64,000 nt of DNA from contig JBIKUD010000002.1 in NCBI GenBank assembly GCA_044347745.1, forward strand, positions 21,764-85,763. Direction: 5' to 3'. The stretch's first letter is position 1, and each line of letters starts with the position of its first letter. The notes beneath the pieces were generated by a model, which ran no database searches, had not been told where the DNA came from, and saw only the letters and a program-made list of their open reading frames with translations. Shown piece after piece: positions 9,623-26,794 of the stretch. The translations under genes and the position numbers were made by a program. This stretch comes from Bdellovibrionota bacterium (GTDB lineage Bacteria; Bdellovibrionota_C; UBA2361; JAFLCA01).

Positions 9623-10089
9623 CGGGCATAAACGAACCGATTACACCTTCCCAGCTTCATTTGTTTGATGAAGTAAAACTTGAGCCTGTCAGTACACAAA
9701 ACTTCTCGAAGTCATGTCAATTTATTGCTATTGAACTTGGCGACAATACATATGCAATAGAAACAAGCAGTATCGATTCGATTGCTCCCTATAAGCAGCC
9801 CCATCCTGTTGCTTTTCTCATGAATTCCCGGATTGATGGCTTCTTATCTTACCGTGGTGTACCCGTACCCCATGTGTTCCTCTCGCAAATTCAGGATGGT
9901 ACCGCACAGGCCGATAAACTGACACGCACAATCTACTTTTCCTACAAAGGGGCGATTTCTGCACTCTCGGTTACCAAGGTCTTAGGTACGATTGAGTTAC
10001 CAGTGCCAGCACCGGGTGGCGCGGAATTAACTACCTACGGCGCACTAAAACGACTTTCCATCGCCAAGATTCTAGGAGATGAGGTATGA
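9619..10089 (+). CDS. cheW: CheW-like protein (WspD position)
   Basis: ELGDNTYAIET, PHPV, GFLSYRG CheW motifs. Confidence 0.7.
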   Translation: MTGINEPITPSQLHLFDEVKLEPVSTQNFSKSCQFIAIELGDNTYAIETSSIDSIAPYKQPHPVAFLMNSRIDGFLSYRGVPVPHVFLSQIQDGTAQADKLTRTIYFSYKGAISALSVTKVLGTIELPVPAPGGAELTTYGALKRLSIAKILGDEV

Positions 10090-12062
10090 ACGACACGTTG
10101 CGTGACCTCTTTGCAGTCGAGCGGGCAACCCACGTAGGAACTCTCGTAGCTTGTGTAAAGGAATTTGCACTTGAGCAGAAAGTAAACGAGCAAACCATCC
10201 AACAATTCCTTAGAGCAGCACATTCACTTAAGGGGGCCGCAAGACTCGTGAATGACCTATTCGTGGAGAAGACTGCTCATCAATTAGAGTCGCTCGTACA
10301 AGAAACAGTAAAGAACCCTGAAAATCCCCAAGCCATCCTTTCTGAATCTGTACTCAACCTCTTTAAGAATCACTTGAGAAACCTAGGTGTAGATTCGCTA
10401 GAACTTATCGCCGGAATAACAGCTTCAGCATCTACCGTGCAATCGGAGGGTGTCTGCCAAGTTACCGAGTCTGACCTATCGAAACTCAATCACCTTGCAT
10501 CAGAAGTGGCTCTCAGTATGAAACGGATTGAGAACCTACTCAATTCAACAAGCGTATCAGACAACGCACAAACCCGAGTCCTGGTGAATCAAGGTCGTGA
10601 AGAAGCGGAGCGTGGCCTTGAACTTGCCCGGCGCCTTCAAAGTCAAACATTACAACTCCAGCTTGTGTCGATTCAGGATGCAATGCGTTCCCTGAATACC
10701 ATGACGCAGGACTTGGCACTCCAACTAGATAAATCCATCAGATTAGTCGTAAAACCGGGATACACCTTAATCGATCGAAGCCTCGCACGACTCATTGAGC
10801 CTGCATTAATTCAACTCATTAGAAACTCCATAGACCACGGAATAGAAACAAAGTCAGAACGTGAACTATCAGGGAAACGCCTAGAGGCTGTCATTGAACT
10901 AAGTGCTCGTCAAAGGGGCACTACAGTTGAGGTAAAAATCCGTGATGATGGAAGAGGCATTGGACATGAACATATTCGCCAATCTGTAACAGAAAAGGGA
11001 CTTCATAGTAGTGAAGCCGCTAGCAAATTGACCAACTCGGAGCTAGAAGAGTTTATCTTTTTGCCTGGATTCAGCACCAAAAAGCAAGTTGGCCCAGTAA
11101 GCGGCAGAGGCATAGGACTTGATATCGTCAGGCCCAATTTAAGAGAGGTATTAGGTGATGTGACTGTCAGTTCTGAGCACGGCAAAGGCACGACCTTTAC
11201 AGTCACACTTCCCGGGCGTCTCTCTGTCCTTAAAGCGCTCATCCTCGAGGTCTCTGGTTGTGCAATCGCTTTGCCTCTTTCTTCAATACAAGCGGTAGTG
11301 CCCAAAGCAGAATATCCGATACAGCATGTAGACGGGGTACCCTGCATTATCGCTAATAATCAAGTAGTACATCTTCTCGATAGTCAAAGACTCTTTAGTC
11401 TGCCAAGACCTGACAACTTAGATTCTCATACAAACATTTCGCACTATGTTCTCTTCCCTCTTCAAGAGCAGATGGTCGCCCTGCCAGCGGATAGGATTCT
11501 TGGTGAGACCGACATTCTGATCCATCCACTCGATGGGAGGTTTAAGCAAAATCGTGCTGTTCTGGGTGTCGGCCGAGCTCTGGATCGTGACATTGTCACC
11601 ATTATAAACACAGAAAACCTAAGCCCCGTAACCCAGCAGAATGCGTCAAAACATGCCAGTATCAATGCTCACATAGAGAAGCGACAGATTCTCATAGTCG
11701 ACGACTCCCCAACGGTACGTGAGCTTGAACGGCGAATTTTAATGCTCCAAGGATACGAGTGCACGATTGCCGAGGATGGTCTCGACGCTCTAGGAAAAAT
11801 AGACTCCGCTCATTTTGACCTGGTAATTACAGACATCGATATGCCACGCATGGATGGCTTTGGACTTATACAGGGAATTCGTTCCCGTCCTAATCTTCAT
11901 GGGACTCCAATTCTCGTAGTCTCCTATAAAGACAGAGTAGTAGACCGTGAGAAAAGTATTTCCCTAGGTGCCCAGGCCTATTTAAGTAAGGGAAGCTTTA
12001 AAGATGATTCCTTTGTTCAAACTGTCGGCAATCTTTTACTACAACCGAAAGGGAACGTATGA
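10086..12062 (+). CDS. cheA: CheA-REC hybrid kinase (WspE-like)
   Basis: Hpt RAAHSLKGAAR, LIRNSIDHGIE, DDGRG, FLPGFST, SGRGIGLD, CheW domain, C-terminal REC. Confidence 0.93.
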   Translation: MNDTLRDLFAVERATHVGTLVACVKEFALEQKVNEQTIQQFLRAAHSLKGAARLVNDLFVEKTAHQLESLVQETVKNPENPQAILSESVLNLFKNHLRNLGVDSLELIAGITASASTVQSEGVCQVTESDLSKLNHLASEVALSMKRIENLLNSTSVSDNAQTRVLVNQGREEAERGLELARRLQSQTLQLQLVSIQDAMRSLNTMTQDLALQLDKSIRLVVKPGYTLIDRSLARLIEPALIQLIRNSIDHGIETKSERELSGKRLEAVIELSARQRGTTVEVKIRDDGRGIGHEHIRQSVTEKGLHSSEAASKLTNSELEEFIFLPGFSTKKQVGPVSGRGIGLDIVRPNLREVLGDVTVSSEHGKGTTFTVTLPGRLSVLKALILEVSGCAIALPLSSIQAVVPKAEYPIQHVDGVPCIIANNQVVHLLDSQRLFSLPRPDNLDSHTNISHYVLFPLQEQMVALPADRILGETDILIHPLDGRFKQNRAVLGVGRALDRDIVTIINTENLSPVTQQNASKHASINAHIEKRQILIVDDSPTVRELERRILMLQGYECTIAEDGLDALGKIDSAHFDLVITDIDMPRMDGFGLIQGIRSRPNLHGTPILVVSYKDRVVDREKSISLGAQAYLSKGSFKDDSFVQTVGNLLLQPKGNV

Positions 12063-12724
12063 AACCGAGAGTGGCTACAAATTTACAGGCAGGCCCTCCC
12101 CCCGCTAGCAAAACTACGTATGCCTTATCCACGCCTCCGCTCATTCTTGTCGGCGCATCAACTGGGGGCCCCGGTGCATTAAAATCTTTGCTTCTTCAAA
12201 TACCGAATCAATTCTGGGGCTCTATCATAATCGTGCAGCGTCTTGATTCGCAGTTTCTTAATGGCTTCGTAGATTGGATAGCCGAGGCAACAGGGAAACA
12301 AGTCAAAGTTCCAGAAAGTGGCCAAATGCCAGAACCAGGAGTTGTCTACATAGCAGGTGCCCATGGCAATCTACAGCTTAACCAGAGAGGATGCTTTGAG
12401 TATGCCCCGTGCAATCCAAAGCAACACTATTGTCCCTCGATAGACGTGCTTTTTGATTCAGTTGCGAATGCGTCCTTCGCGCCAAGTATCGCTTGCCTGC
12501 TCACTGGTATGGGTAGCGATGGCGCCTTAGGGCTTGCAGCGCTCGCTAAACGCGGTTGGAGGACGTACGTCCAGACGCCCCTTTCTTGCGCAGTTGATGG
12601 CATGCCTATGGCTGCTCTAAAAATTCACCCTGCACATAATTCAAGCAGCATTGAACAGATGAGCAATCAAATCCGTGTTTCCACAATCAATTTTATGCGA
12701 GGTACTTATGCAAACCAGAAATAA
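12059..12724 (+). CDS. cheB: CheB methylesterase domain only (no REC), catalytic His replaced by Arg (WspF-like)
   Basis: GASTGGP, IVQR instead of IVQH, PSIDVLF, LTGMGSDG. Confidence 0.85.
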   Translation: MKPRVATNLQAGPPPASKTTYALSTPPLILVGASTGGPGALKSLLLQIPNQFWGSIIIVQRLDSQFLNGFVDWIAEATGKQVKVPESGQMPEPGVVYIAGAHGNLQLNQRGCFEYAPCNPKQHYCPSIDVLFDSVANASFAPSIACLLTGMGSDGALGLAALAKRGWRTYVQTPLSCAVDGMPMAALKIHPAHNSSSIEQMSNQIRVSTINFMRGTYANQK

Positions 12725-13862
12725 TGAACATAAAGTTCTCCTTTGTGATGACCAAGAAATTGTGGCTGTGGCACTCAAACAAATGCTCCACGACAAAGAG
12801 GGCATCATATGTATGCATGTCGCCAGCCAAGCCGCATTATTTGAAGCTCTCCAAAGTTTTAAACCAACGGTGCTCCTTCTTGATTTAATTCTGCCAGAGG
12901 CTAATGGGATTCAGATCACCAAACAAATCAGAGCCGATAAGAATATTCCCCATATTCCCATAGTACTGCTGTCATCTGCCGATGAAGCTCAGGTAAAAGC
13001 GGATGCATTCATTGCAGGGGTAAATGACTATCTGGTGAAATTCCCCAATGCAGTTGAGCTCGTTGCCCGGGTAACTTACCACTCTCAAGCTTTTATGGAC
13101 CATCAGGCGAATATCAAAGCCCGCTCTGAATCTGAGCAAAGGTCTCGGGTAGAAGCACTCGGCACCTTAGCCGCCGGCATCGCCCATGAAATTAATACCC
13201 CACTCCAATATGTCACGGCCAATCTTGAATACGTGCTTACAAGCATTGAGTCCGCGACCGTAGAGTCCGAAGTTCCTGCAGCTTTGAAGGACGCACTGCA
13301 AGGAGTACAGCAAATCTCTTCAATTGTTCGTGCAATGAAAGCTTTTGCCCATCCGGGAAGAGAGGAACACGTTACCGTAAAGGTTCATGAGCTATTATCA
13401 GATGTTGCCCTTCTTAGCCGAAACGAATGGAAAGATGTCGCAAGACTTGAAGTTGCTCCCATACCCGAAGGACTGACCGTTACTGGCTCACCTGGCGCAC
13501 TCAGTCAGGTACTCATAAATCTCGTTGTGAATGCTGCGCAAGCGATACGTGACAACAAAATTGCCGCCGGGCTTATCTCTCTGAGAGCCGCTAATCATAA
13601 CAACACTCTTCTTATCGAGGTTGAAGATAACGGCGGTGGAATTCCGCTAGAGGTCCAAGGCAAAATCTTTGACCCATTTTTTACCACAAAAGATAGAGGT
13701 GAAGGCAGCGGACAGGGATTAACCATATCGAGAAGCCTTATTGAAGAAACACATCAAGGGAAACTTTCATTTGAGTCTAGCCCCGGAAAAGGAACTACCT
13801 TCAAAATTGATTTGCCCCTTAGTAGTACCCAACCTCATGATCTTCAATCGGCAACCCATTAA
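12708..13862 (+). CDS. WspR-like REC fused to a histidine kinase
   Basis: VLLCDDQ...GVNDYLVKFPNAVELVARVTYHS; H-box AHEINTP, NLVVNA, DNGGG, FFTTK, GQGL; GAGGT SD before ATG 12708. Confidence 0.88.
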   Translation: MQTRNNEHKVLLCDDQEIVAVALKQMLHDKEGIICMHVASQAALFEALQSFKPTVLLLDLILPEANGIQITKQIRADKNIPHIPIVLLSSADEAQVKADAFIAGVNDYLVKFPNAVELVARVTYHSQAFMDHQANIKARSESEQRSRVEALGTLAAGIAHEINTPLQYVTANLEYVLTSIESATVESEVPAALKDALQGVQQISSIVRAMKAFAHPGREEHVTVKVHELLSDVALLSRNEWKDVARLEVAPIPEGLTVTGSPGALSQVLINLVVNAAQAIRDNKIAAGLISLRAANHNNTLLIEVEDNGGGIPLEVQGKIFDPFFTTKDRGEGSGQGLTISRSLIEETHQGKLSFESSPGKGTTFKIDLPLSSTQPHDLQSATH

Positions 13863-13877
13863 TCAGAAGGAAGCAAC

Positions 13878-14384
13878 ATGAATAACAAACCAATTGTTCT
13901 ATTCGTTGACGATGAACCCCAAATTCTTAATGCATGGCGCCGCGCCTTTGGCGGAGAACCGTACACCATGCTTACCGCGGGAAGCGGCAGCGAGGGCCTA
14001 CGCATCGCGAAGGAAACAAGGTTGGCTGCGGTCGTAAGTGACTACGCAATGGCAAACGGCGACGGCTTAGACTTTCTCAAATACATCAATCAAGTATATC
14101 CAGACACGACCCGCATCATGATAAGCGGACACGCGACACTTGAGGTCGCGAAGGCGGCCATTAATTCATGTGGAATCATGCGTCTGTTTCAAAAACCCTG
14201 CTCTACGGTTGAACTTGGGGTCGCCATACGCGAGGCAATTAGCGAACATTACCGCCGTTGCCCAGCTTGCCCAATTGGGAGCCGCAGCTCAGAAGTTATT
14301 CAACTTGAGAACAGTTATCCGGGCATCACCAAAGTGGACCGCGATTCCAGTGGACGGATACTATTAGATGAAGGCACAAATTAA
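13878..14384 (+). CDS. Single-domain response regulator with short C-terminal tail
   Basis: VLFVDDE...VSDYAM...MISG...FQKPC. Confidence 0.85.
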   Translation: MNNKPIVLFVDDEPQILNAWRRAFGGEPYTMLTAGSGSEGLRIAKETRLAAVVSDYAMANGDGLDFLKYINQVYPDTTRIMISGHATLEVAKAAINSCGIMRLFQKPCSTVELGVAIREAISEHYRRCPACPIGSRSSEVIQLENSYPGITKVDRDSSGRILLDEGTN

Positions 14385-14458: not shown

Positions 14459-14644
14459 CTAGAAGCAATCTCACAATTCATACATTTGAGATAGCTTCTA
14501 GGCGCGCCAAGAATAGCGTGCTCGGCGACCGAGCTTGCGAAGAGTCTGGTATGACGCAAGGACGGGGCCTTTATCGGGTCCCGGTCCAAGCTTGTGGAGC
14601 ACTCTCATACCTGCCAGAGAAGGCATAAATGGAATAAGTTCTAG
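14459..14644. mobile_element. CTAG-ended structured repeat / MITE-like element, copy A
   Basis: CTAGAAGCAATCTCA...TGAGATAGCTTCTAG hairpin plus core GCGCGCCAAG...CTCGGCGACCGAG...GGACGGGGCC shared with 34027-34223 and 24341-24516. Confidence 0.75.
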
Positions 14645-15960
14645 TTGGACATTTTTACCAAAGTTTTTCCTGCGTTACGCCAAGCAAGCAGACCTCCTGC
14701 TAAGGAAAACGCGCTATACCCCTGAGATTGTAGATACGCCGCATACCGTATGGTTTTCTCGCCAACAGGACAAAGCAACAAAATCGCTCGCTCCTTAGGA
14801 AAAGGAGCTGCGCCATCGATCATTTGCTCAAGCAGTTGCCAAGCGATATTTAATGCACCGGGTAAAGTCATAAGCTTATAAGAAAGATTGCCACGTACAT
14901 CGATAATAAGCGGGTTATTCTCCTCTATCCATTGTGGAGCTGCCTCCACGGAAATTGTACAGCCTGCCCCACTCGGAGATCGTTCAAAAGCCTGCAATCC
15001 CTTACTGCTGGCATCTGCTGAAAATAGTTGCGGCCTTCTCGCTCGGATATAATCCATATACCATTCGAGACGGTCACAGACGATAAACACCGCTTTCTTG
15101 CGCTCGGTCAATGTGGGCGCAATCTTTTGAAGGTAACGCAACGTCCCTAAATAACTTGCGCCGCTGGTCGGGCCGCACAGGATACCTACCTTTCGGACAA
15201 GTTCCATCATCGCATCAACAGCATCACCCGAATCTACATACAAAAAGTCTGCATAGTGTTCTTTGGTAAACAATCCAGATTCCCACATTTGATCTAAACT
15301 ACGAATCCCAGGAATAAAATCATTCTTACTGGCGCAGACACCAACGGTAACAAGATCCGGACTTCTGCCCTGCTTCAATCTTCGTGCAACTCCCAAAGTA
15401 GAGCCCGACGTACCTAGTCCGCCAAAAAAATAATCGACCCGACCCAAATCATCTTCAATCTCTTTACCAGTAGTTGCAAAATGGACGTCTGGATTTTTTG
15501 GATTGGTAAATTGTGAAGGGAAATAGGCTTGTGCCGGGTTAGCCTTAACTGTTTTTTCAATCAAATATTGAGGGTCATTGGGATCGTTTGGATCAAAACA
15601 CTCGCTGCCACCAACAACTTCCTCAATCTCAGCTCCGAGAAGTCGCACGATATCTTTGACACCCTCTAGTTTTGCAAGATAGGTAATAAGTTTTGTGCGT
15701 ACCCCATGTATACTGGCTATAACTTGCAATGCTTTAGCGGTGTTCCCCGAGGAGTTTTCATAAATCGTCTGACCTTTTGCCTGAATATCAGCGATATCAT
15801 CTTTGATCATTCCCCAAGCAATTCTATCTTTCACCGAACCGAATGGATTCATCATCTCTAGCTTGGCGTATAAATCAATGTGTGGCAGACCGTGAACCTC
15901 TGGGGGAATACGCAGAAGTGGTGTGTTACCAATTAAATCCGTTATCTTCTGATAAATCAT
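14641..15960 (-). CDS. PLP-dependent cysteine synthase-family enzyme fused to a C-terminal rhodanese domain
   Basis: IGNTPL, KLEMMNPFGSVKDR (PLP Lys), SSGNT, GLGTSG; IIDVRG...CPVGEKT...SLAGGLLAW rhodanese. Confidence 0.9.
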   Translation of the reverse strand: MIYQKITDLIGNTPLLRIPPEVHGLPHIDLYAKLEMMNPFGSVKDRIAWGMIKDDIADIQAKGQTIYENSSGNTAKALQVIASIHGVRTKLITYLAKLEGVKDIVRLLGAEIEEVVGGSECFDPNDPNDPQYLIEKTVKANPAQAYFPSQFTNPKNPDVHFATTGKEIEDDLGRVDYFFGGLGTSGSTLGVARRLKQGRSPDLVTVGVCASKNDFIPGIRSLDQMWESGLFTKEHYADFLYVDSGDAVDAMMELVRKVGILCGPTSGASYLGTLRYLQKIAPTLTERKKAVFIVCDRLEWYMDYIRARRPQLFSADASSKGLQAFERSPSGAGCTISVEAAPQWIEENNPLIIDVRGNLSYKLMTLPGALNIAWQLLEQMIDGAAPFPKERAILLLCPVGEKTIRYAAYLQSQGYSAFSLAGGLLAWRNAGKTLVKMSN

Positions 15961-17477
15961 TTGAGCATCCTTTGAGCTAGCGGATTATACAGCTCTTCCC
16001 TGAACCAACAAAAACGCCCATCAACCTCAACAACTGCCACCTTATCCGCAATACGCTGTTGCAATACGGTAGTTTCGGCAAAATCCATCTGGTAAGCAGC
16101 CGTATTAACAAATGCAACCACATCCCCCGCCTGCGGAAGAAAACCCGGAAACGTTTTGTGATACTGAATCATGTCGTGCGTAAGACAAAGATTTCCGACG
16201 TAATACACTCCATTTTCTGCGGGCTGCGACGCAAGACCTTTATGCAACACGATAGGATCTGTAAGCAGTTTAAGTTGGGTTGCATTCAAATTCGTGCGAT
16301 TCATATCAAGCATCACTAACGTTTCATTGGTGAGCGACTGTTTAATAAAATTAACTCGGGCAAGTGTGATGCCACACTGGTCCAAAAGCGCACGCCCAGG
16401 CTCTACATAGAGCTCCATCAAACTATCGCTGAGTATGTTTGCAAGACTTTGATTGCCAAAGGACGGCAAATGCGTATCAATTACAGAGGCAAGATCCCCG
16501 GGTCCGTCATCCTTATGGAAATGTTCCATAAAATTTGGCGCTCCCTTAAGCACCCCTTTCTCACTACTAAATCCAAGTCCGCTTTCGTTCCAGGTAATTG
16601 AACTGCGCTGCCCCAGAACAGATGCCTTCAACTCTTCGACCCAGAGATTCCATTCATCCTGCGAGGCTGCATACCGAATCCGATATCCTCCCCCAATATT
16701 CAAACCTCGTGGATTTAGACCACGCTCAATACAGGCAAAAGTTAGTTCAAGACACTTTTCTATTGCCAGCGGACGTCGAATATAATCACCCGCGTTAAAG
16801 TGGAAAGAGAACCCTCGAAAATCGATGGTTTCCCTATGTGCAAGGAGAAAATCAATCAGACCGGCAACCTCTTCTGCACGATTTCCAAATGCACTGTCTT
16901 GGGCAGTAAATTTTTTATGGGAAGAGACAAAACCATCAAGGCGCACCAGCACTCCAATTTTTTCTCGCTTTGGAAGCACTGCCGCCATCTGCACCAATTG
17001 CTGCAGCTCCACAAAGTTATCCACATTGAACAAGATCCCGTGCTGTACCCCCAAACTAAGGTAATCAAGATTTTTTGGACCAGTTGCCTCAATACGCGAG
17101 GGATGGAAGCCCGTCGTTAAACCATTTTTAAGTTCGCCTTCCGACGATACATCAAGGCCAACTGAAGTAAGAGCCGCGCGTTTCCTCAATGCTAAAGATT
17201 TATTTGGCTTAGAAGTGTAGAAAATTCGACCTTGCAACGATCGCTCGCGATACACCTTCTCAAATCCCGCAATGGTTTCGGCTATATTATCTGGGAAAAT
17301 GATATTGAGGGGTGAGCCTAATCCATCTACCAGGGAAAAGGCCAAATCTTTGGAATCCAGAAATCGCTGAATTGACGGATGAATTGCTGCTCTCACCCGT
17401 GGCCGGATTCGATTTAACTGCGTACCCAGTAATTGATCAGCGAGACAAGAAGCCGACTCCCCAACAGTGCTGCTCAT
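15957..17477 (-). CDS. Y4yA-type PLP-dependent decarboxylase (diaminopimelate decarboxylase-like fold)
   Basis: YTSKPN, DVSSEGEL, ATGPK, NIGGG, EPGRALL, GNLC, TAAY; ATGA overlaps on both sides. Confidence 0.85.
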   Translation of the reverse strand: MSSTVGESASCLADQLLGTQLNRIRPRVRAAIHPSIQRFLDSKDLAFSLVDGLGSPLNIIFPDNIAETIAGFEKVYRERSLQGRIFYTSKPNKSLALRKRAALTSVGLDVSSEGELKNGLTTGFHPSRIEATGPKNLDYLSLGVQHGILFNVDNFVELQQLVQMAAVLPKREKIGVLVRLDGFVSSHKKFTAQDSAFGNRAEEVAGLIDFLLAHRETIDFRGFSFHFNAGDYIRRPLAIEKCLELTFACIERGLNPRGLNIGGGYRIRYAASQDEWNLWVEELKASVLGQRSSITWNESGLGFSSEKGVLKGAPNFMEHFHKDDGPGDLASVIDTHLPSFGNQSLANILSDSLMELYVEPGRALLDQCGITLARVNFIKQSLTNETLVMLDMNRTNLNATQLKLLTDPIVLHKGLASQPAENGVYYVGNLCLTHDMIQYHKTFPGFLPQAGDVVAFVNTAAYQMDFAETTVLQQRIADKVAVVEVDGRFCWFREELYNPLAQRMLK

Positions 17478-18430
17478 GGTGCCTCATTCGCCAGAAAAAA
17501 GTTTTGATCAATCTGATTACTCACATCGCCGTAGCTCAATTTTACCCACTCTTTCTCGTTTAAACGCTGATGCAATCGGCGAAGCATAACTTGGCGCTGT
17601 TTCGGAGAAATTCGTGGAGCAGAAGCAAGTGTGTAAATTCGGTCCATTAATTGATGCAGCTCGTTAGTCAAAGTTTGTGCGGGTATTGCGTGGCCTCGCT
17701 GGCGCATCCTTTTTAGTTGCGGCATAAAATCAATAGTCCCAAGCGCCGATACTCCTGTATGCTCTGCAATAAAAGCTAAGTCTTCTGAATTTTCTACTTT
17801 ATTTGCGACTACCTGAACAATGGTCTCGATTCCTGCGCTTTTTGCGAGATTAAGGTAGAGCTTTGAAACCGCAACCGATTCGGGAGTTGGTTCTGTCAGG
17901 AGGACAATACAATCAAATTGTACATACATTGAATACGCAAATGAATCGGTGCCGGCAACCATATCACAGACAACATCAAACTTTTCAGCCAACATATGTG
18001 ACAGAAGGTTCTCGGCCACAAACAGGTGGGAGTGATAGCAGGTTTGCCCAATACCAGATGTTTCATACGTACCCACCGTCAGTAATTGTGTATGGGCATC
18101 GATAGGTAAAGCGTAATCCTCAATCACTGAATCGTGAATATGTGAAATAACATTTGAGCCAGGACCCGGAGGGGTGGTTGGAAGAAACATTTTTATATCT
18201 GGTATACGAGAATTGGCTCCCTTTAAATGAGTGCGAATTGAAGCCGCAACTTCGGGTGAGGACAAAAAGCGCTCCGAGGGACAGTGCACTCCAAGCAACC
18301 CGCTGAGATTCATATTTATATCGGCATCAATTGCCAGCGTATCCCTGGCCTTTGCTTGTAAATATCTTATAAACAGGGCAGCTACCGTGCTCTTTCCCGA
18401 TCCGCCCTTGCCTACAAATGCAATTTTCAT
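17474..18430 (-). CDS. CooC/MinD-like P-loop ATPase with CYH motif
   Basis: MKIAFVGKGGSGKST, IDAD, GQTCYHS, DMVAG, EPTPES, VANKV; GGGGAG SD before ATG 18430. Confidence 0.85.
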   Translation of the reverse strand: MKIAFVGKGGSGKSTVAALFIRYLQAKARDTLAIDADINMNLSGLLGVHCPSERFLSSPEVAASIRTHLKGANSRIPDIKMFLPTTPPGPGSNVISHIHDSVIEDYALPIDAHTQLLTVGTYETSGIGQTCYHSHLFVAENLLSHMLAEKFDVVCDMVAGTDSFAYSMYVQFDCIVLLTEPTPESVAVSKLYLNLAKSAGIETIVQVVANKVENSEDLAFIAEHTGVSALGTIDFMPQLKRMRQRGHAIPAQTLTNELHQLMDRIYTLASAPRISPKQRQVMLRRLHQRLNEKEWVKLSYGDVSNQIDQNFFLANEAP

Positions 18431-18449
18431 TCTGTACTCCCCTTTCCCT

Positions 18450-19583
18450 TTATCTGGACTGATACATCTCACTCACTGCATGTTGTATCATACCTGCAGC
18501 TTCCTCTACCTCTGCTCGTGATGTCATACGACTGAATGATATGCGCACGCACTCGCGAGCAGCCTCCACCCCCGCAATCGCCGATATCACATGAGAATAC
18601 TCGTTCCGCGAACTGCTACAGGCAGCTCCAGTGCCGAAGGACACCTCTGGTAACGCCATAACGAGGGCTTCGCTATCAATTCCAGGGAATCGTAAGGCTA
18701 ATATTCCTGGGACTTGCCAGGCTTCATCAGCATGCCCGTAGACAACGGGACCAAGCTGCTTCAAAACTCCTAAGAACTTATGACGCAGCGCCTGCTGCGA
18801 AGCAGTGTTTATTTCTAATATGTCGCACGCCTTTCCGAATCCAACACACAACGCTGTCGGAAGAGTTCCTGATCGCAAGTTTTTTTGCTGTCCTCCACCT
18901 CGTAAAAGTGGCACTACCTCCTTCTGTAGCTCTGCTCGAAGGTAGAGAGCTCCTATGCCCTGAGGACCATGAACCTTATGGGCAGACATGCTCGCAAAAT
19001 CGACCGAAGCACTCACCACATCAAATGGTATCTTTCCAATCGCTTGAGCAGCGTCGCAATGCAGCAGAATATCACGACCTGCCAACAGCGCCGCCACCTC
19101 TTTGACAGGTTGAACTGTGCCAGTTTCATTGTTCACAGCCTGCAAACACACCAGACCTGTCTTTTCAGTTAAGTACGGATCAATGGTGCTGGCTTCAACC
19201 ATTCCGCAAGGTTTTGGCGGCACCATAGTCACCGTGAAACCATCTATGCAATTTATTGCCTGAAGAACACTTGAATGCTCCAGCGCACTCGCAATAATGT
19301 GAGTCTTTCCTTTGCTCAATAAGTAGTCTGATATCCCGTGTACCGCCAAGTTATTGGCTTCGGTTGCGCCCGACGTAAAAATAATCTCTTCAGGCCTGGC
19401 ATTCACCGCGTTGGCAACACTATTTTGCGCCTCACTTACCGCACGCTCTGCAGCAGCCCCATGCACATGATGGCGCGCATGCGGATTCGCCGGAAATTGG
19501 AACCACGGCAACATTGCCTCCAGCACTCGCGGGTCAACACATGTACTTGCTGCCGAATCTAAATATATCGCTTGAGCACTCAT
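18450..19583 (-). CDS. Cysteine desulfurase (IscS/NifS group I)
   Basis: YLDSAAS, FTSGATEANN, NNETG, DAAQ, SAHKVHGPQG, RSGT, GAACSS catalytic Cys. Confidence 0.92.
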   Translation of the reverse strand: MSAQAIYLDSAASTCVDPRVLEAMLPWFQFPANPHARHHVHGAAAERAVSEAQNSVANAVNARPEEIIFTSGATEANNLAVHGISDYLLSKGKTHIIASALEHSSVLQAINCIDGFTVTMVPPKPCGMVEASTIDPYLTEKTGLVCLQAVNNETGTVQPVKEVAALLAGRDILLHCDAAQAIGKIPFDVVSASVDFASMSAHKVHGPQGIGALYLRAELQKEVVPLLRGGGQQKNLRSGTLPTALCVGFGKACDILEINTASQQALRHKFLGVLKQLGPVVYGHADEAWQVPGILALRFPGIDSEALVMALPEVSFGTGAACSSSRNEYSHVISAIAGVEAARECVRISFSRMTSRAEVEEAAGMIQHAVSEMYQSR

Positions 19584-19707
19584 GAAGACGATCAACACAA
19601 TTCAAAATTACGCACCAAGTAACAATCAAATCAGCGTGAAACATTTGTCATGCCGACTGAGAGACTAAGCCATTAGAACCCATAGAACTTTTCTCCCCCC
19701 TTGCATA

Positions 19708-19745
19708 TGCAACTGAGTTGCGTTACATAATGCAACCAAGTTGCA
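19708..19745. promoter_or_regulatory. Two Fur/Zur-type operator boxes in the divergent promoter region
   Basis: TGCAACTGAGTTGCG (19708-19722) and TGCAACCAAGTTGCA (19731-19745) overlap TTGCAT...CATAAT promoter elements. Confidence 0.75.
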
Positions 19746-19801
19746 AATTAGTCAAAGTCCCGTTATTTCAAGGACAAAGGACATTTTAGGGGGAAGTCCA
19801 G

Positions 19802-21439
19802 TTGTTAAATCTAAAGCCCTCAGTACCAACATCAGAGCCTCTCACTGTCGAACCACAGGTAGTGGCACTTATCGGACCATGGGGCTCGGGCAAAACCACC
19901 ATTCTCAACTCCATCCAACAGACCGCCGGATTCGCAGGCACCCGAGTCGGCGTTATCTTCGCTGAATTTGGTGAAGTGAACGTCGATGCAAGTCGAATTA
20001 GCGCCGATAAAATTGTAGAGGTTCAAGATCGCTGCATCTGTTGTCATGGTGCAGAAGCCTTAGCTACCGGCATCAACCAATTACGGTCTCAAGTCGATTT
20101 GCTCTTGGTTGAAACCTCTGGGGTTTCGAACGGCTCTAACATCCGTGATGTCTTGAAGAGCCTTGGCCTTAATTACTCCATTCTTGGTACTGTGAGCACG
20201 GCAGGTTTTTCCAAAGAAGACATCGATTTACTTGACGCTCAACTGCCTGTGGTAGATCGGGTACTACTCACCCACAATGAATGGCTTGGAAGCCCACCAT
20301 CACTGGACGACACCAAACTTGCACCACTGACAAGTTACCTTTCTGGCTTAGGTATCATAGACAAAGTCAGCTTCGCCCATCCTAACAGAGGAATAGACGC
20401 AAGAGATTGGGAATCACTTAAAGTGCAGTCTCATCTGCCAGACAGCCTGTACATGCCGGCACGGCAAGCTTCGGCGCTTTCCACTCGCGAGCGGCAACAC
20501 CATCAAATTGTTCTTACCGTGGTATTGCACCCTCAAACTAGGGTTGAACAGCTACAAGAAACCCTCGCCCAACACGGGCCTCTCATCGAACGCGCCAAAG
20601 GTGTTATCTGTGATCAACATGGCGTTGCTTACGACTTTGACTATATCAAAGGGCGAGATCCAAAAACTGGAGAACCCAGTATGCAGCTAACCCTATCCCG
20701 CGAACCTTCTCGCTCCACTCTACTTGGTGGTAGACCTCACGTCGTACTTTTCTCACGCAACAATGAAGGGCTACTCACCCACTCATTATTCCTAGCTATC
20801 GGCTCGCCGCACATCACAGATGAGAGATTGGAAAAAGCGTTCTCGCGCTATCCGGAACACATAGAGTACTTTTCTAGATGGAATACATTCCCTGCGTACA
20901 ACAAGGAGGGCGACAGATACTATGGCGTCCTCTACCCAATCATAACGTCTATTGATCGCATCCCCCGGCATGCAGACAGGCTCGGCATTGAACATTTTTG
21001 GAATAGAACCATAGAGGCGTATTTGGCTTGGCGAATTAAGGGCATCGAGGCTCTCGATCAGCTTCGCAATCAAGGCGTTTCAGACGCCCATCTGTTAGAT
21101 CCTGAAAATTTATTAGCAACCAACCTTCTTTGGCATCTCCTCAATGCCCCGCGAGAGCTTTCCTTAGAGACAAAGACACGTATTGAGCAACAGACTCCTG
21201 CCAAAAGATTTTTCGCTTCAATGGCAACACTTTCTCAACCGCCCGAATCGGGGGGTAATCGAGAACTTTCCCCTGAGTTTCTTGTAATGATCGCTCAGTT
21301 CGCCAAATACGGCCTCCGTAACGAAGGGCTTAACCTTGGCGATATCCGAGATGCCATGGCCCATGCTGAAAAGGTGGATAACGGTGGAACTTGGGCCGGT
21401 GCCTCAGAGCGACTTCTCTCTTTGCTTGACACTGAGTAA
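19802..21439 (+). CDS. COG0523/CobW-family metallochaperone GTPase with long unknown C-terminal extension
   Basis: GPWGSGKTT, EFGEVNVD, CICC, VETSG, ERAKGV; AGGGGGA SD before TTG. Confidence 0.85.
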   Translation: MLNLKPSVPTSEPLTVEPQVVALIGPWGSGKTTILNSIQQTAGFAGTRVGVIFAEFGEVNVDASRISADKIVEVQDRCICCHGAEALATGINQLRSQVDLLLVETSGVSNGSNIRDVLKSLGLNYSILGTVSTAGFSKEDIDLLDAQLPVVDRVLLTHNEWLGSPPSLDDTKLAPLTSYLSGLGIIDKVSFAHPNRGIDARDWESLKVQSHLPDSLYMPARQASALSTRERQHHQIVLTVVLHPQTRVEQLQETLAQHGPLIERAKGVICDQHGVAYDFDYIKGRDPKTGEPSMQLTLSREPSRSTLLGGRPHVVLFSRNNEGLLTHSLFLAIGSPHITDERLEKAFSRYPEHIEYFSRWNTFPAYNKEGDRYYGVLYPIITSIDRIPRHADRLGIEHFWNRTIEAYLAWRIKGIEALDQLRNQGVSDAHLLDPENLLATNLLWHLLNAPRELSLETKTRIEQQTPAKRFFASMATLSQPPESGGNRELSPEFLVMIAQFAKYGLRNEGLNLGDIRDAMAHAEKVDNGGTWAGASERLLSLLDTE

Positions 21440-21485
21440 AACAACTTTCTTGATACAAAAGCACAAAGGTAGCAGAAATTTAATA

Positions 21486-21863
21486 CTACGGCTTTGAACA
21501 GCTTCGGCATTTCCCAGAGAGAACGAGCGATTCCCTCGCAATGACCAAACCCTTGGGCCGCAGATTTTTCAAATCGACCACATCGTCTCCAAGACACATA
21601 ACCTGACTGCAATCTTGGCAAATAAAATGGGGGTGCCCCGCCACTTCTTTTAGTTCATACAAAGAAGCTTGGCCCGGGACCGAGATGCACACAATTTCCC
21701 CAGATTCGACGAGAACTTTTAGGAATCTATAGACGGTTGACTTGTTGAGATCTGATCTTTTTTTTGAAACATCTTTTAGAATTTCTACAGCAGTAATAGG
21801 CCGCCCGGAACTTCGAAGAGTGGCAGTTATCTCTACTCGGGCTTGTGTGGTTCTTGCGGACAT
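21486..21863 (-). CDS. Fur-family regulator, probably Zur
   Basis: RTTQAR, STVYRFL, HPHFICQDC, GKCRSC; ATG 21863 is 6 nt after a -10 box; next to COG0523. Confidence 0.88.
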   Translation of the reverse strand: MSARTTQARVEITATLRSSGRPITAVEILKDVSKKRSDLNKSTVYRFLKVLVESGEIVCISVPGQASLYELKEVAGHPHFICQDCSQVMCLGDDVVDLKNLRPKGLVIARESLVLSGKCRSCSKP

Positions 21864-21869
21864 GCCCAA

Positions 21870-21908
21870 ACGATACACGATCTGCTCCCTTATCGCAACC
21901 AAGTTGCA
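21870..21908 (-). promoter_or_regulatory. Leaderless fur/zur promoter with autoregulatory box
   Basis: -35 TTGCGA (21898-21893), 17 bp, -10 TATCGT (21875-21870); box CGCAACCAAGTTGCA (21894-21908) overlaps the -35. Confidence 0.75.
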
Positions 21909-22230: not shown

Positions 22231-22541
22231 CCTCGATTTTTCGGGCTTCCAAGTAAAATTAGGTCGATAAAACTGCTCCGTAAGGGGCGCTTCGCCCGGC
22301 ATGGGATTCTCCCAGCGCACGGGGTGTTAATTCGATCTTCCACCTACAAAGAAATCCGGCCGAGGCTCCAAACATCAGGCAGCTTTTAGCTTTTGCCTGC
22401 CATACGGGTAGATGATTTCGAAGGTTTTCAAAATAACCGTAGCCCACTTTGCTCACTACCCCTCTGACACCGCGGATTGGAGGAGGAAAGAAGCAAATTG
22501 GTTGCTTCAACTCCAATTCAAAACAGAAAAGGAGGAAGGTT

Positions 22542-24344
22542 ATGAACACATTAGGTGATGTGAAACGGGTTATCAGTGATGCAAAACGTTTGGTGCTCCT
22601 TACGTGGCGCGAAAAGAAGTGGTTGGTTATCTGCCTCACCGTAGCAACCCTATTGGCGTCAGTTCTGCCATTCGCACAAAATTTTGCGATTGGCAGGATG
22701 CTGAATGCCTTGGTAGAGAGCTCGGGCGAGCAGAAAGAATCTGCAGTTCAACTGCTTTTGATTGCAGCTATTGTGTGTGGAACAGCCTACGCATTAGCTA
22801 ATTTTTTGCAGTTTCTCTTAAAATCCATTTTGTACAAGGAACTATTCCATGTACTCAACGTGGTAATTCTAAGAACAACTGCAAACCTTGATATCGCTTC
22901 ACACGAAAACCCCGAGCGCAGAGATTTGCTTACAAAGGTTGAGGAGAACGCCATGTGGCGCGCTCCAGATTTTATGCAACGACTATTCCAGTTGTTACAG
23001 AATCTAACTGAAGTAAGCATAGCTGCTCTCATATTCCTCGGTGCCGACTGGCAACTAGGGATGGCAATTATCTTGGTGTCCTTACCAAGAATCTGGAATG
23101 ACCTGACCTACAACAACAAATTGTGGGAAGTGGAAACCCAGGTTGCCGAAACCAGAAGAAAATTCTGGTACTCACGATGGTTCCTGATAGCAATGGCAGC
23201 TTTGCCCGAGGTGAAGCTTTTCCAAAATGTGCCCTACTTTGTAGGACGCATTGATAGGCTATTAGGAAGTATCAAGGCGAAGGAGATGGAAGTTGAGCTA
23301 CGAAATGCTGGCGTTCAGCTTGCAGTACTCGCAGCATCAGAGGCAGTAGCAATCACCGCCCTGGTGTTCTTTGTACACCGAGCACTAAGCGGCAGTATCG
23401 ACTTAGGAACACTGGCGTTTCTTATCGGTAGTTCGTCAGTCTTTCGTTCGTCGTTGCAGTCGCTTTCGCAAAACATTGGTAGCCAGTTCCGAGATGGCAA
23501 GTTTGTACGAGACATGTTTGAGGCCTTTGACCTTAAACCGCTTGTGCATACAAATAGCCAGTCCAAAAAGCAGCTAGACGGGCAAATTGAAGAAATTCAA
23601 TTTGAAAATGTCTGGTTCGCTTATCCTGGAACTGAACGATGGATTCTCAAGGACTTTAACCTGCGCATTGCGGGTGGAAGCACCATAGGAATCGTTGCTG
23701 AAAACGGCTCAGGAAAATCGACTTTGGCCAAGTTACTCTGCCGAATGTACGATCCGACTCGCGGGCGCATCCTCGTAAACGGCGTGGATATTCGCGAGTT
23801 TGATCTGGACTATTGGCAAAGTAAGTTGGGGGTAGTCAAGCAAGACTTTCTGCACTACGACCATTTGGATATTAAATCTGCCATTTGCCTAGGAAGGGCA
23901 AGTGCGGAACCCACTGATATTCAAGCAGTTCGTTTTGCAGCAGAAGCCGCTGACGCCCATGGCTTTATTGAGGCACTTCCTCTTGGGTATGCAAGTACCC
24001 TAGGAACCTCATTTAGAGGTGGCGTAGAGCTGAGTGGTGGACAATATCAACGCCTTGCTTTGGCGCGGGTGTTTTATCGCCAACCAGAAATTGCCATTCT
24101 CGATGAGCCAACGTCAGCGGTTGACTCTGATGCAGAGGCCAGAATTTATCAGAAAATTCTGAGTTGTCTCCCGGCGTGCACCAAAATCGTTATTTCACAC
24201 CGTTACTACACCTTAAGAAAGGCAGACAAAATTTGCCTGCTCCAAAATGGTGAAGTGACCGAGTGCGGGACTCACGATGAGTTGATGCAACTGGGAGCCG
24301 TATATGCCGAGCGCTACAAGGCGCAAGCGGCTGAGTATCACTAG
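22542..24344 (+). CDS. ABC exporter, fused permease and ATPase
   Basis: AAGGAGG SD before ATG 22542; TM domain; AENGSGKS, LSGGQYQR, ILDEPTS, ISHR. Confidence 0.92.
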   Translation: MNTLGDVKRVISDAKRLVLLTWREKKWLVICLTVATLLASVLPFAQNFAIGRMLNALVESSGEQKESAVQLLLIAAIVCGTAYALANFLQFLLKSILYKELFHVLNVVILRTTANLDIASHENPERRDLLTKVEENAMWRAPDFMQRLFQLLQNLTEVSIAALIFLGADWQLGMAIILVSLPRIWNDLTYNNKLWEVETQVAETRRKFWYSRWFLIAMAALPEVKLFQNVPYFVGRIDRLLGSIKAKEMEVELRNAGVQLAVLAASEAVAITALVFFVHRALSGSIDLGTLAFLIGSSSVFRSSLQSLSQNIGSQFRDGKFVRDMFEAFDLKPLVHTNSQSKKQLDGQIEEIQFENVWFAYPGTERWILKDFNLRIAGGSTIGIVAENGSGKSTLAKLLCRMYDPTRGRILVNGVDIREFDLDYWQSKLGVVKQDFLHYDHLDIKSAICLGRASAEPTDIQAVRFAAEAADAHGFIEALPLGYASTLGTSFRGGVELSGGQYQRLALARVFYRQPEIAILDEPTSAVDSDAEARIYQKILSCLPACTKIVISHRYYTLRKADKICLLQNGEVTECGTHDELMQLGAVYAERYKAQAAEYH

Positions 24345-24516: not shown

Positions 24517-24595
24517 CTGACGAGAGCCAGCTTAAAAATAGGAGTTATAGAAGCACATAACTCCAAACGTGGGACTCCCGTCCCACGTGGTGTTT

Positions 24596-24632
24596 GAGGG
24601 TAGGAGTGCCATTGCACTCCTACCCTCTTTTT
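24596..24632 (+). terminator. Intrinsic terminator
   Basis: 14-bp stem GAGGGTAGGAGTGC/GCACTCCTACCCTC followed by T5. Confidence 0.7.
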
Positions 24633-24715
24633 CGCCAACATCACCATTTATCAACACCGTAATCACAGGTTTTAGCTTCCACCTCCAATCTAAATGCCCA
24701 ATAATACGTCGATAT

Positions 24716-26794
24716 ATGTACCAACTTCGATCACTAAAACGTGCGTCGCTCATCGATATCGTGGGCCTGCTCTTATATTCATTCCTGATCTGCTTGGCCC
24801 TTGAAGCCTTCCCGCCTTATTTTTTTTGTGATGAAGCAATTCATGGGCTAGAAGCGCACTCTATCCTTGAGCATGGAACCGCGCTTAATGGAGAACCCTG
24901 GCCACTCTTTTTTAAAGGCCTAGGGCAGTATCAACTCTCTTTTTCAGTGTACACAAGACTTCCCTTCATAGCGGCGTTGGGAATGACTGTTGAATCGGTA
25001 CGTCTTCCGAATGCGCTTGTAAGCATTCTGGGCGTCTTGGCTTTTATGTACCTTGTGAAACAAACGCAGAACGCCAGTAAACAACCCACCTGGATACCGT
25101 ACTTACTGCTAGTATCTCCGGTCTGGTATCTGCATGCACGTTCTGGTTTTGAAGCACTACAAGCAGTATCCTACCTTCTCCTAGCTCTTTCCCTATACAT
25201 ACAGTGTTTTTCCGCTCGGCCGTACTCGCGCTTAAACTTTGAAACTCTTTTTCTTGCTGTTGGCTCAGCATTCTTTTTTGCGCTTACCTTCTATACCTAC
25301 ACTGCTGCCCGTGGTTGGGTTTTCTTCACCTTACTGGCGCTGGGTCTGGGCAATTTAATTGCCCATCTAAAGAACTTTAAGGCTTCTCTCATCTTTATCT
25401 GTTTTTTCTGCCCCATCTTCTTGGGACCTTACTGGAAGCTTCACTTCCTAAGCCCAGAGGTGGCGAACGCTCGCCTTGAGGCAGTTGGTTACCCCACTCT
25501 CGCAGAGCTATTTACCGAAGAACGTCTAGGCCTCATTTTGAATCAATTAGGGATAGCGCTGAACCCAGGATTTTGGTTTACCTGGTCCGGCACCTATACA
25601 TCCGGAGCACAGCTGCGCCATATTATTCCAGAGCACGGATTATTCCCCTGGTTCCTCGCTCCTTTTCTATTTGTCGGCGTCTGGAATCTCCTTAGGAACA
25701 TTGGCAGCTTAAGCGCCCGCAGCATATTATTAGCCACCCTTGCTTCACCACTCACCGGCGCACTTGCAGAAATTAATAGCTTACGCTCACTCGCAACTGG
25801 CTGCCTCTATTTTTTGATTGCATGCATCGGACTGGGGCAAGTTCTGCAGTTTCTCTACAACAAAGTAAGTCGGACCTGGCTCATCACAGCACCCATCTTG
25901 CTATTTTGTGTTCTCTATCTGGTTAAGTTTCAGCACTTTGTGCTTTACCAAGCTCGGCATCAGTATAGTGCATACGATTTTTACGGCATCCAGTATGGCG
26001 CCGCTGACATTTCTGAATGGATTAGTACCCAAACTGGAAGCGAACAACGCATATTTCTAGCATCAAACATTTTTAATGCAGCGGAAAGTTTACTTGATTT
26101 TTTCCTCGATACTAAAATTCGAAACAGAATAAGAATCGCACATACGGACGAACTTTGTGACCCCGGAAGCCCAATTTTTGGTCAACATAAAAATTCCGTT
26201 TGGATCATTCCGGTTTCATCAGAAACAGAAGCCACCCCAAAAAACTGCCCGCTAGAATTTAAAAGGGAATCCGTGCTGCATGACCCAAATATGAATCCTC
26301 TCTATGTAATTGGTCATTACATCGAAGTGGGTTCTCTTGACGAGTTTCAACGTCATCATCTTCAAACACTCCATAAACTAGAAGAAACTCAGGTTAAAAC
26401 ACGACAAGGGCCAATTGACGTTGCGCATTCAAAACTTTTTGATTCGGTAGAGTACGCATTTGATGGAAATCTACAAACCTTGACCAAAACCGCTCGAGTA
26501 AATCCGTTACGAATACAACTACGGAGCGATTTTTCTAATGCACATGAAATAAAAATTATTGTCTCACATGCTCGGGAACTGCAAATTACCCTCGCCGCAA
26601 TTCTTGAAGATGGCATCACCCTGCAGCAAGTGAATAGCTCGGTGGTGAAAATTGACCAATTACACAATAGAGGAGAAGTAGCCTTTATTTTGCATAATCT
26701 GCCTTTTCGGCATAAAGGGCTGCAAATTGAGATTAAACAGAATGCAGAATCTCAGTTTGCTATCGTGCACCTTAACGAAGTCTCGTGGCAGTAA
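24716..26794 (+). CDS. GT-C (PMT/ArnT-like) membrane glycosyltransferase with C-terminal soluble domain
   Basis: PPYFFCDEA, GEPWPLFF, SVRLPNA, YTYTAAR; multiple TMs. Confidence 0.75.
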   Translation: MYQLRSLKRASLIDIVGLLLYSFLICLALEAFPPYFFCDEAIHGLEAHSILEHGTALNGEPWPLFFKGLGQYQLSFSVYTRLPFIAALGMTVESVRLPNALVSILGVLAFMYLVKQTQNASKQPTWIPYLLLVSPVWYLHARSGFEALQAVSYLLLALSLYIQCFSARPYSRLNFETLFLAVGSAFFFALTFYTYTAARGWVFFTLLALGLGNLIAHLKNFKASLIFICFFCPIFLGPYWKLHFLSPEVANARLEAVGYPTLAELFTEERLGLILNQLGIALNPGFWFTWSGTYTSGAQLRHIIPEHGLFPWFLAPFLFVGVWNLLRNIGSLSARSILLATLASPLTGALAEINSLRSLATGCLYFLIACIGLGQVLQFLYNKVSRTWLITAPILLFCVLYLVKFQHFVLYQARHQYSAYDFYGIQYGAADISEWISTQTGSEQRIFLASNIFNAAESLLDFFLDTKIRNRIRIAHTDELCDPGSPIFGQHKNSVWIIPVSSETEATPKNCPLEFKRESVLHDPNMNPLYVIGHYIEVGSLDEFQRHHLQTLHKLEETQVKTRQGPIDVAHSKLFDSVEYAFDGNLQTLTKTARVNPLRIQLRSDFSNAHEIKIIVSHARELQITLAAILEDGITLQQVNSSVVKIDQLHNRGEVAFILHNLPFRHKGLQIEIKQNAESQFAIVHLNEVSWQ

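Follow-up and report, generated by a model that had tools for sequence, protein, structure and literature searches.

A conserved gene module with a CooC-like ATPase and a PALP::rhodanese fusion enzyme in a Bdellovibrionota bacterium: a candidate metal-starvation unit that may build a small metal ligand

Few bacterial molecules that scavenge zinc are known to us, namely the opine-type metallophores, ethylenediamine disuccinate (EDDS), and some siderophores, and we know of none from Melainabacteria, predatory bacteria, or the tiny-genome Patescibacteria. The EDDS genes of Amycolatopsis japonicum (aesA-D) are reportedly controlled by Zur, and EDDS production is said to be repressed by zinc. During our analysis of a 64,000-nucleotide stretch of a Bdellovibrionota genome (GenBank assembly GCA_044347745.1, contig JBIKUD010000002.1, positions 21,764 to 85,763; hereafter the window) we examined a minus-strand operon (14641-19583) of four genes, which encode in order a cysteine desulfurase, a CooC-like ATPase, a decarboxylase dependent on pyridoxal 5'-phosphate (PLP), and a protein in which a PALP domain is fused to a rhodanese domain (PALP::rhodanese). 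The last of these has the same PALP-then-rhodanese-like single-chain architecture as two fungal enzymes, Fda4 and aspergillomarasmine A (AMA) synthase, which are described as condensing O-phosphoserine with an amino acid to form C-N bonds; AMA synthase couples O-phosphoserine to L-aspartate, and in the Fusarium poae Fda4 route a flavin adenine dinucleotide (FAD) oxidoreductase then frees L-2,3-diaminopropionate (L-Dap) (PMC12751119). The setting is also similar, in that their products are either the building block Dap or the zinc chelator AMA, which has been called a natural Zn2+ metallophore (PMC8829947). The fungal enzymes differ in having no Fur/Zur control and no partner decarboxylase, desulfurase, or ATPase. 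A further described system is staphyloferrin B synthesis, which likewise uses a cysteine-synthase-fold enzyme (SbnA) and an enzyme similar to diaminopimelate (DAP) decarboxylase (SbnH) for a metal chelator. Relative to SbnA/SbnH, the window's module adds the rhodanese domain, the desulfurase, and the ATPase, and among its annotated neighbours there is no SbnB/ornithine-cyclodeaminase-type partner and no synthetase of the kind that makes siderophores independently of nonribosomal peptide synthetases (NIS). A first-pass annotation of the window, made from the sequence without database searches, had drawn the SbnA/SbnH analogy, which gains strength from the architecture shared with AMA synthase and Fda4, since these act in the synthesis of a chelator or of Dap.

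The reading that fits best is that the operon is a real, conserved, mobile, and apparently uncharacterised metal-starvation unit, a variant of zincophore-type pathways. The genes are tightly coupled, as had been noted: ATGA overlaps can be read at both the ATPase/decarboxylase and the decarboxylase/fusion junctions, and the 20 nt between the desulfurase stop and the ATPase start contain a GGGGAG ribosome-binding site. The first-pass annotation had also proposed looking for the same neighbourhood in other genomes, where its absence would have spoken against the idea, and it does recur. Scanning species-representative genomes with the ATPase confirmed 126 relatives, and among the best 80 loci, which were kept for neighbourhood counts, 38 have ATPase, decarboxylase, and fusion genes in that order on one strand; the rest comprise 3 partial loci and 39, mostly from Actinoplanes, in which the ATPase occurs without decarboxylase and fusion. 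A desulfurase homologue is present in 30 of the 38 complete loci, upstream in close relatives and downstream in distant ones, and in other versions of the module a cystathionine-gamma-synthase-like PLP enzyme takes its place. Carriers include metagenome-assembled genomes (MAGs) of Melainabacteria/Obscuribacterales, Micavibrio (including a complete genome of M. aeruginosavorus), Pseudobdellovibrionaceae, Micromonospora, Actinoplanes, Jiangellaceae, several Patescibacteria, gammaproteobacterial MAGs, and one Nanohaloarchaeon. The decarboxylase and fusion enzyme of the window are 73% and 78% identical, respectively, to those of a Micavibrio MAG, whereas in the window's own order, where 21 of 91 genomes have a homologue of the fusion enzyme, the best one is only 56% identical; the cassette therefore moves between lineages. 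We found no paper describing this gene set in the open-access literature, supplements aside, and look-ups in the ESM Atlas returned solely unnamed clusters of PALP+rhodanese and CbiA proteins.

Several versions of the module come with additional genes, which speak for a small-molecule product. The Micromonospora loci add two ATP-grasp enzymes, a major facilitator superfamily (MFS) transporter, and a TauE/SafE transporter, and one further locus (L010) has an MFS gene after the fusion gene. In nine alphaproteobacterial or Bdellovibrio-like loci the cassette is preceded by a gene for a membrane protein with a His-rich tail that matches no known family. Members of this His-rich family have ~375 residues, an MCKFHK start, and C-terminal membrane helices (e.g., L015:5649-6734, L021:5653-6804, L027:6156-7280, and L029:6138-7265), and are often accompanied by a 236-residue protein with a CPAC motif and a small membrane protein. 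Three Saccharibacteria loci (L081, L083, and L086) show another arrangement, in which decarboxylase and fusion are replaced, after the C-Y-H ATPase, by a ~290-residue protein resembling short-chain dehydrogenases; upstream in L086 there are a Fur gene and the palindrome TTGCAA-N5-TTGCAA.

The three PLP enzymes keep their catalytic motifs and score below the cut-offs of the characterised families nearest to them. The fusion enzyme (PALP, residues 6-296; Rhodanese, 339-429, by Pfam) shares its PLP-lysine motif, SSGNT loop, and rhodanese Cys397 with every one of the 26 aligned homologues. Its NCBIfam scores were 157.3 bits for cysM (cut-off 394.2), 124.4 for cysK (350.95), and 139.5 for SbnA (349.95), and a profile of the fusion family searched against the PDB matched CysM (7.7e-48), the 'Rhodanese domain-containing protein' chains 8h4q/8h4h (9e-41, residues 14-375), and SbnA (1.9e-40), so that CysM scores higher than 8h4q. 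As the PALP domain scores about equally against these three groups, a prediction of the product from sequence was abandoned. The rhodanese domain alone matches active sulfurtransferases and keeps the invariant catalytic Cys; unlike the full-length profile it does not match 8h4h, which is absent from its 27 matches at E≤1. Among NCBIfam models the decarboxylase comes closest to lysA, at 114.5 bits where the cut-off is 297.9, and its best PDB matches are DAP decarboxylases (E-value 3.6e-14). The PLP-Lys, GGG, EPGR, and C-terminal Cys motifs are kept in 40 homologues, and the protein has CLTHD instead of the DAP-type C-E-S motif. The desulfurase scored 341.4 bits for DndA (cut-off 480) and 322.9 for IscS (643.2), and its SAHK PLP lysine and AACSS catalytic-Cys loop are kept in 24 homologues.

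These features bear on whether the module handles sulfur. A persulfide relay from the desulfurase to the rhodanese Cys is plausible, and we consider incorporation of sulfur into the product more likely than chemistry confined to C-N bonds, because the rhodanese domain resembles active sulfurtransferases, its Cys is invariant, a desulfurase is frequent in the module, and a cystathionine-gamma-synthase-like enzyme can stand in for it. A lanthionine-to-thialysine route would be pure speculation, given the near-equal scores of the PALP domain and the missing C-E-S motif of the decarboxylase. Iron-sulfur (Fe-S) cluster assembly was considered as the purpose of the desulfurase and found unsupported; a gene elsewhere in the window's assembly matches PF00266 more strongly than the desulfurase does, and, in line with the first-pass annotation, no Fe-S scaffold, dnd, or carbon monoxide dehydrogenase (CODH) gene was seen among the annotated neighbours, the whole genome not having been searched for them.

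CooC is the nickel-insertion ATPase of CO dehydrogenase, and C-x-C is its nickel motif. Of 3,866 database candidates, 1,677 are related to the window's ATPase at E≤0.001, many with more than 50% identity, and the best relative of solved structure is CooC1 (PDB 3kje, E-value 1.9e-10). Both have a deviant Walker A motif (GKGGSGKST in the window's protein, which fits the MinD-class pattern xKGGxGK[ST]), and the putative metal motif lies at the same position of the alignment, where TCYH of the ATPase falls over QCYC of CooC. The Walker A motif and a GQTCYHSHLF block are invariant in the ATPase alignment. The replacement of C-x-C by C-Y-H, which had been noticed at first pass, extends throughout the family: among 104 family segments, down to 29% identity, 102 have CYH and 2 have CFH, and the His that follows varies. 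The window's ATPase further differs from CooC in a C-terminal extension of ~60 residues (318 versus 254 residues), in belonging to a family found under Zur-type boxes, and in its neighbours, for none of those annotated in the window or inspected at related loci is a CODH/acetyl-CoA synthase gene, no whole-genome search having been made. In Actinoplanes, members of the family are found by themselves behind Zur-like boxes, and some operons with decarboxylase and fusion genes have no ATPase gene. The first-pass annotation had left open whether the ATPase is a ligase or a metal-insertion factor. A role as a ligase is unlikely, as the deviant Walker A motif points to an ATP-dependent dimer rather than a ligase, and the gene both occurs alone and is missing from some operons; a role in metal handling is favoured by the kinship with CooC. 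An amide ligase of the BioD/CobQ type was also set aside, since the Walker A motif is of the deviant MinD/CooC type and CooC is the best solved match. We therefore take the ATPase for a probable, separable metallochaperone whose dimer interface would carry a Cys/His site.

Upstream of the operon, the divergently transcribed GTPase gene had been assigned to COG0523. The protein does have a G3E P-loop and a CxCC motif (CICC), like the zinc metallochaperone GTPases of COG0523 (ZigA, YciC/ZagA, and YeiR), and it has the same operator as canonical COG0523 genes of relatives (see below). It is not a canonical member: its match to cobW is confined to residues 20-114 (profile positions 2-100 of 180), a CobW_C domain is missing, the C-terminal ~400 residues are without family assignment, and the ZigA model gave 46.7 bits against a cut-off of 600. 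Related proteins are few, with 7 at E≤1e-20 among 7,999 scored candidates; 2 genomes of the order encode homologues of near full length (45-48% identity), and after each of these comes another CobW-like match. The adjacent gene, identified at first pass as a Fur-family gene, is clearly one (Table 1) and is the sole PF01475 match in the window's assembly (94.5% complete). Its product carries two CxxC pairs and an H-x-H block.

The palindrome GCAAC-N3-GTTGC (GCAACNNNGTTGC), reported at first pass to lie twice in the divergent gap and once over a putative -35 of the regulator gene, has exact copies at 19709, 19732, and 21895 and nowhere else in the window. Allowing ≤1 mismatch, there are 8 matches in the window against a mean of 2.72 in 100 shuffles, none of which reached 8. 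The whole 3.26-Mb assembly holds 6 exact copies (~3 expected), 3 of which fall within this 2.2-kb stretch. Promoter-like hexamers on the minus strand (-35 at 19755-19750 and -10 at 19732-19727) bracket the palindrome at 19732, so that the locus has the arrangement of a Zur-regulon operator, a Fur-family gene together with a palindrome between promoter-like -35 and -10 hexamers. The copy upstream of the regulator gene is a probable site of autoregulation.

To follow the palindrome beyond the window we searched 91 genomes of the window's order with the 545-residue GTPase, which returned 10 loci (the window's own and one from each of 9 other genomes). At all 10 loci the CobW-like gene is closely preceded by a sequence that differs from TGCAACNNNGTTGCA at no more than 2 positions. 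In five relatives YGCAAC-N3-GTTGCR precedes a canonical COG0523 gene (cobW plus CobW_C) and a Fur-family gene, and the same type of box precedes a ZnuA-containing operon, two genes for TonB-dependent receptors, a MerC-like gene, and an operon of decarboxylase, fusion, and ATPase genes; in two relatives a ThiO-like FAD oxidase gene lies behind the box. The boxed ZnuA, TonB-receptor, COG0523, and Fur genes are located in relatives G028, G070, and G060. Genes for ZnuABC, COG0523 proteins, and TonB receptors are recurrent members of Zur regulons as surveyed in PMC6103462, and because the box stands before genes of these kinds and before Fur genes it can be read as the Zur-type box of this lineage. 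The occurrence of Zur-type boxes in other genomes, which the first-pass annotation had suggested searching for, is thus borne out by the 9 related genomes, and the palindrome behaves as the Zur box of the window's lineage would. A separate sequence, TCCAACGAAGTTGCA, recurs on at least 6 contigs of relatives G060 and G070 and probably belongs to a repeated element or conserved gene rather than being an operator.

Independent support comes from other phyla, in which Fur/Zur-type boxes stand at the module. In a Melainabacteria genome (L028) TGATAA-N4-TTATCA precedes the operon and two COG0523 genes, each divergent from a Fur gene; a box of this type precedes the ATPase gene in L026, and three further loci (L068, L086, and L075) have boxes resembling the window's. 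Of the 38 complete loci, 12 have a Fur-family gene next to them. Across 43 actinobacterial loci, matches (≤3 mismatches) to the mycobacterial type of Zur box, taken from the list of experimentally defined boxes given in PMC4298942, are 13-fold enriched in the 245 nt upstream of the ATPase gene (10 in 10,578 upstream positions versus 49 in 669,537 elsewhere), and six of them lie 72-76 nt before the ATPase start.

Several observations weigh against a zinc regulon that includes this operon. In the window's assembly an intergenic scan with ≤2 mismatches gave no convincing further target of the box, and no zinc-uptake gene with a box was found, so that the regulon there would consist of this locus alone. 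Across the five relatives the genome-wide count of boxes with one mismatch (34) is barely above that of a reversed-pattern control (20), and the regulon reading therefore rests on the positions of the best sites. Within the window's order an exact box lies directly upstream of 6 of 25 decarboxylase-fusion pairs, with one more pair behind a boxed COG0523 gene; none of the three loci with the window's four-gene order has one, the best match having 4 mismatches; and other decarboxylase-fusion pairs of the order follow a two-component system instead. The sequence of the regulator fails to discriminate between Zur, Fur, Nur, and PerR, and its nearest relatives of solved structure are Fur, Nur (3eyy; third-best), PerR, and Zur, without clear preference. 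Weighing these points together with the boxed genes, we consider zinc the probable metal, with nickel or cobalt as the main alternative. The pairs that follow a two-component system (L099:1026-7543, L159:520-7037, and similar) form a paralogous decarboxylase-fusion lineage, placed after a histidine kinase, a Fis-type response regulator, and three small uncharacterised proteins, in which no Zur-like box was seen; L099 has two decarboxylase-fusion pairs within 8 kb.

On balance we lean, somewhat more than evenly, towards a metal-starvation unit, most likely zinc-responsive, that builds a small N/S metal ligand and has a metallochaperone ATPase of its own. In such a unit, the metal-loaded Fur-family protein would bind TGCAAC-N3-GTTGCA and repress the operon, the gene for the CobW-like GTPase, and its own gene, and possibly that of the nearby ABC (ATP-binding cassette) exporter, and a shortage of the metal would lead to expression of the operon. 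The fusion enzyme would form a PLP-aminoacrylate from O-phosphoserine or O-acetylserine and add a nucleophile, which could be an amino-acid nitrogen, as with AMA synthase, Fda4, and SbnA, or sulfane sulfur; in the latter case the desulfurase would draw sulfur from cysteine and hand it to the invariant rhodanese Cys. The DAP-decarboxylase-like enzyme would then remove a carboxyl group, comparable to SbnH in staphyloferrin B synthesis. The outcome would be a small amine/thiol(ether)/carboxylate compound that binds the scarce metal and that some lineages, at least, would export. The CooC-like ATPase would act as an ATP-driven dimer holding the metal at the interface site. The ABC exporter is a candidate for exporting the product, its link to the operon being adjacency and one imperfect palindrome. 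A more specific version is put forward tentatively, and we would not call it probable: a widespread pathway of bacteria and archaea, in which a desulfurase-fed PALP::rhodanese enzyme and the decarboxylase make a new sulfur-containing zincophore, together with a second family of zinc-starvation metallochaperones (the C-Y-H ATPases) besides COG0523, working jointly or alone.

This account has to be weighed against others that share much of the same evidence. It is possible, although we think it rather doubtful, that no sulfur is transferred and that C-N chemistry and decarboxylation yield an aminocarboxylate of the ethylenediamine type (EDDS/AMA-like), with the desulfurase and rhodanese Cys serving, for example, the loading or regulation of the ATPase. 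Both characterised PALP::rhodanese enzymes do no sulfur chemistry, as each condenses O-phosphoserine with an amino acid in the description given in PMC12751119, and this counts against a sulfur product, as does the lack of a desulfurase in 8 of the 38 complete loci; the ThiO-like FAD oxidase that shares the box in two relatives would moreover echo the Fda3 step. Chemistry without sulfur is harder to reconcile with the invariance of the rhodanese Cys, the similarity of that domain to active sulfurtransferases rather than to 8h4h, the desulfurase of the other 30 loci, and the cystathionine-gamma-synthase-like enzyme of other versions. Under the same regulation the product might also stay inside the cell, where a low-molecular-weight thiol or amine would buffer or traffic metal or protect emptied zinc sites, or where the pathway would be a zinc-independent bypass for an essential metabolite, with the ATPase handing metal to clients in the manner of COG0523 proteins. 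We regard this as unlikely, though it would suit the occurrence of the module in very small genomes (Patescibacteria, the Nanohaloarchaeon), in which a secreted chelator would be unusual, as well as the solitary ATPases of Actinoplanes, the lack of an importer or TonB receptor with a box in the window's assembly, and the single imperfect site behind the exporter link. An exported product agrees better with the MFS, TauE/SafE, and ABC transporters and ATP-grasp ligases that adjoin the module in several loci, with the TonB-dependent receptors that share the box in relatives, and with the closest characterised enzymes, which make secreted chelators or their building blocks.

The metal could be other than zinc, that is nickel, cobalt, iron, or manganese, with a regulator of the Nur, Fur, or Mur type and an ATPase that inserts nickel or cobalt as CooC does; we hold this to be improbable. 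The kinship with CooC, the position of Nur among the solved relatives of the regulator, a weak NicO-like match beside Fur in a relative (25.6 bits, below cut-off), and the His-rich tails would all fit nickel or cobalt. Neither ZnuA-family nor G3E proteins deal exclusively with zinc, and the TGCAA-N5-TTGCA core of the palindrome resembles TTGCAA-N5-TTGCAA, which we take to be the Nur box. On the other side, COG0523, ZnuA, and TonB-receptor genes under one box make the classical Zur pattern, the C-x-C nickel motif of CooC is replaced in every one of the family segments, neither CODH nor hydrogenase nor urease genes were seen among the annotated neighbours, and the actinobacterial ATPase genes carry matches to experimentally defined mycobacterial Zur boxes (as listed in PMC4298942). 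Finally, the fusion and decarboxylase might be ordinary CysK/CysM and LysA enzymes for cysteine and lysine synthesis, with a spare desulfurase, that lie beside metal genes by chance. The best family matches are indeed cysM and lysA, and the window's assembly has no lysA above cut-off (the best, at 104.9 bits, is on another contig). Nevertheless the scores are far below the cut-offs (157 versus 394 and 114.5 versus 297.9), the window's assembly has two other PALP genes, and the pair is kept as a unit with the ATPase at 73-78% identity between phyla. Since a separate canonical lysA scores above cut-off in 4 of 5 other carrier genomes, the module is not a housekeeping one for lysine; we rejected this explanation as very improbable. 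One carrier, G045, has no lysA, and its one Fur gene adjoins its cassette.

If the preferred reading of a ligand-building starvation unit is correct, such a compact, mobile cassette, independent of nonribosomal peptide and NIS synthetases, would explain how organisms of these kinds compete for trace metals, and the C-Y-H ATPase, found behind Zur-type boxes in three phyla, would be a new player in the allocation of metal under starvation. Since aspergillomarasmine A is the product of a fungal relative of the key enzyme, the compound made here might attract interest as a zinc chelator of the type that acts on metallo-beta-lactamases. The question is directly testable, as cultured carriers exist (Micavibrio aeruginosavorus and strains of Micromonospora and Actinoplanes).

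Table 1. Genes and palindromes at the operon and its upstream flank, in coordinates of the window
Feature	Position	Strand	Remarks
PALP::rhodanese fusion, 439 aa, last operon gene	14641-15960	-	Pfam PALP E 1.2e-46, Rhodanese E 1.9e-09
Fold-III PLP decarboxylase, DAP-decarboxylase-related, 506 aa	15957-17477	-	Pfam Orn_Arg_deC_N; ATGA overlaps at both ends
CooC/MinD-class P-loop ATPase, 318 aa from MKIAF start	17474-18430	-	CbiA/MinD-type P-loop; candidate metallochaperone
Group-I (IscS/NifS/DndA-like) cysteine desulfurase, first operon gene	18450-19583	-	Aminotran_5 (class-V aminotransferase) E 4.3e-73
Two exact palindromes, divergent promoter region	19709-19721, 19732-19744	.	Proposed operators of the Fur-family repressor
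Atypical G3E/CobW-like GTPase, 545 aa, divergent from operon	19802-21439	+	Partial cobW match, CICC motif
Fur-family regulator, ~125 aa from MSARTTQ start	21486-21863	-	Pfam FUR E 2e-16
Third exact palindrome, 32 nt upstream of regulator ATG 21863	21895-21907	.	Exact motif match
Imperfect palindrome GCAAATTGGTTGC, 1 mismatch, 37 nt upstream of likely exporter ATG	22493-22505	.	Weak, single site
MsbA/CydDC-like ABC exporter, fused permease and ATPase	22542-24344	+	ABC_tran and ABC_membrane

The genes flanking the unit were also inspected. The exporter gene likely starts at ATG 22542, which has AGGAGG ahead of it, and its product scores below the cut-offs of the nearest models (MsbA, 240.7 bits; CydD, 194.6 bits). 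On the other flank of the operon a chemotaxis-type cluster (8522-14384) encodes CheR, CheW, a CheA-like hybrid kinase, CheB, a receiver-kinase hybrid, and a lone receiver, with no apparent link to the metal unit. The region 3' of the exporter gene encodes a 741-residue polytopic membrane protein (24569-26794), which matches no Pfam or NCBIfam family, and a uridine kinase gene also lies beyond the exporter.

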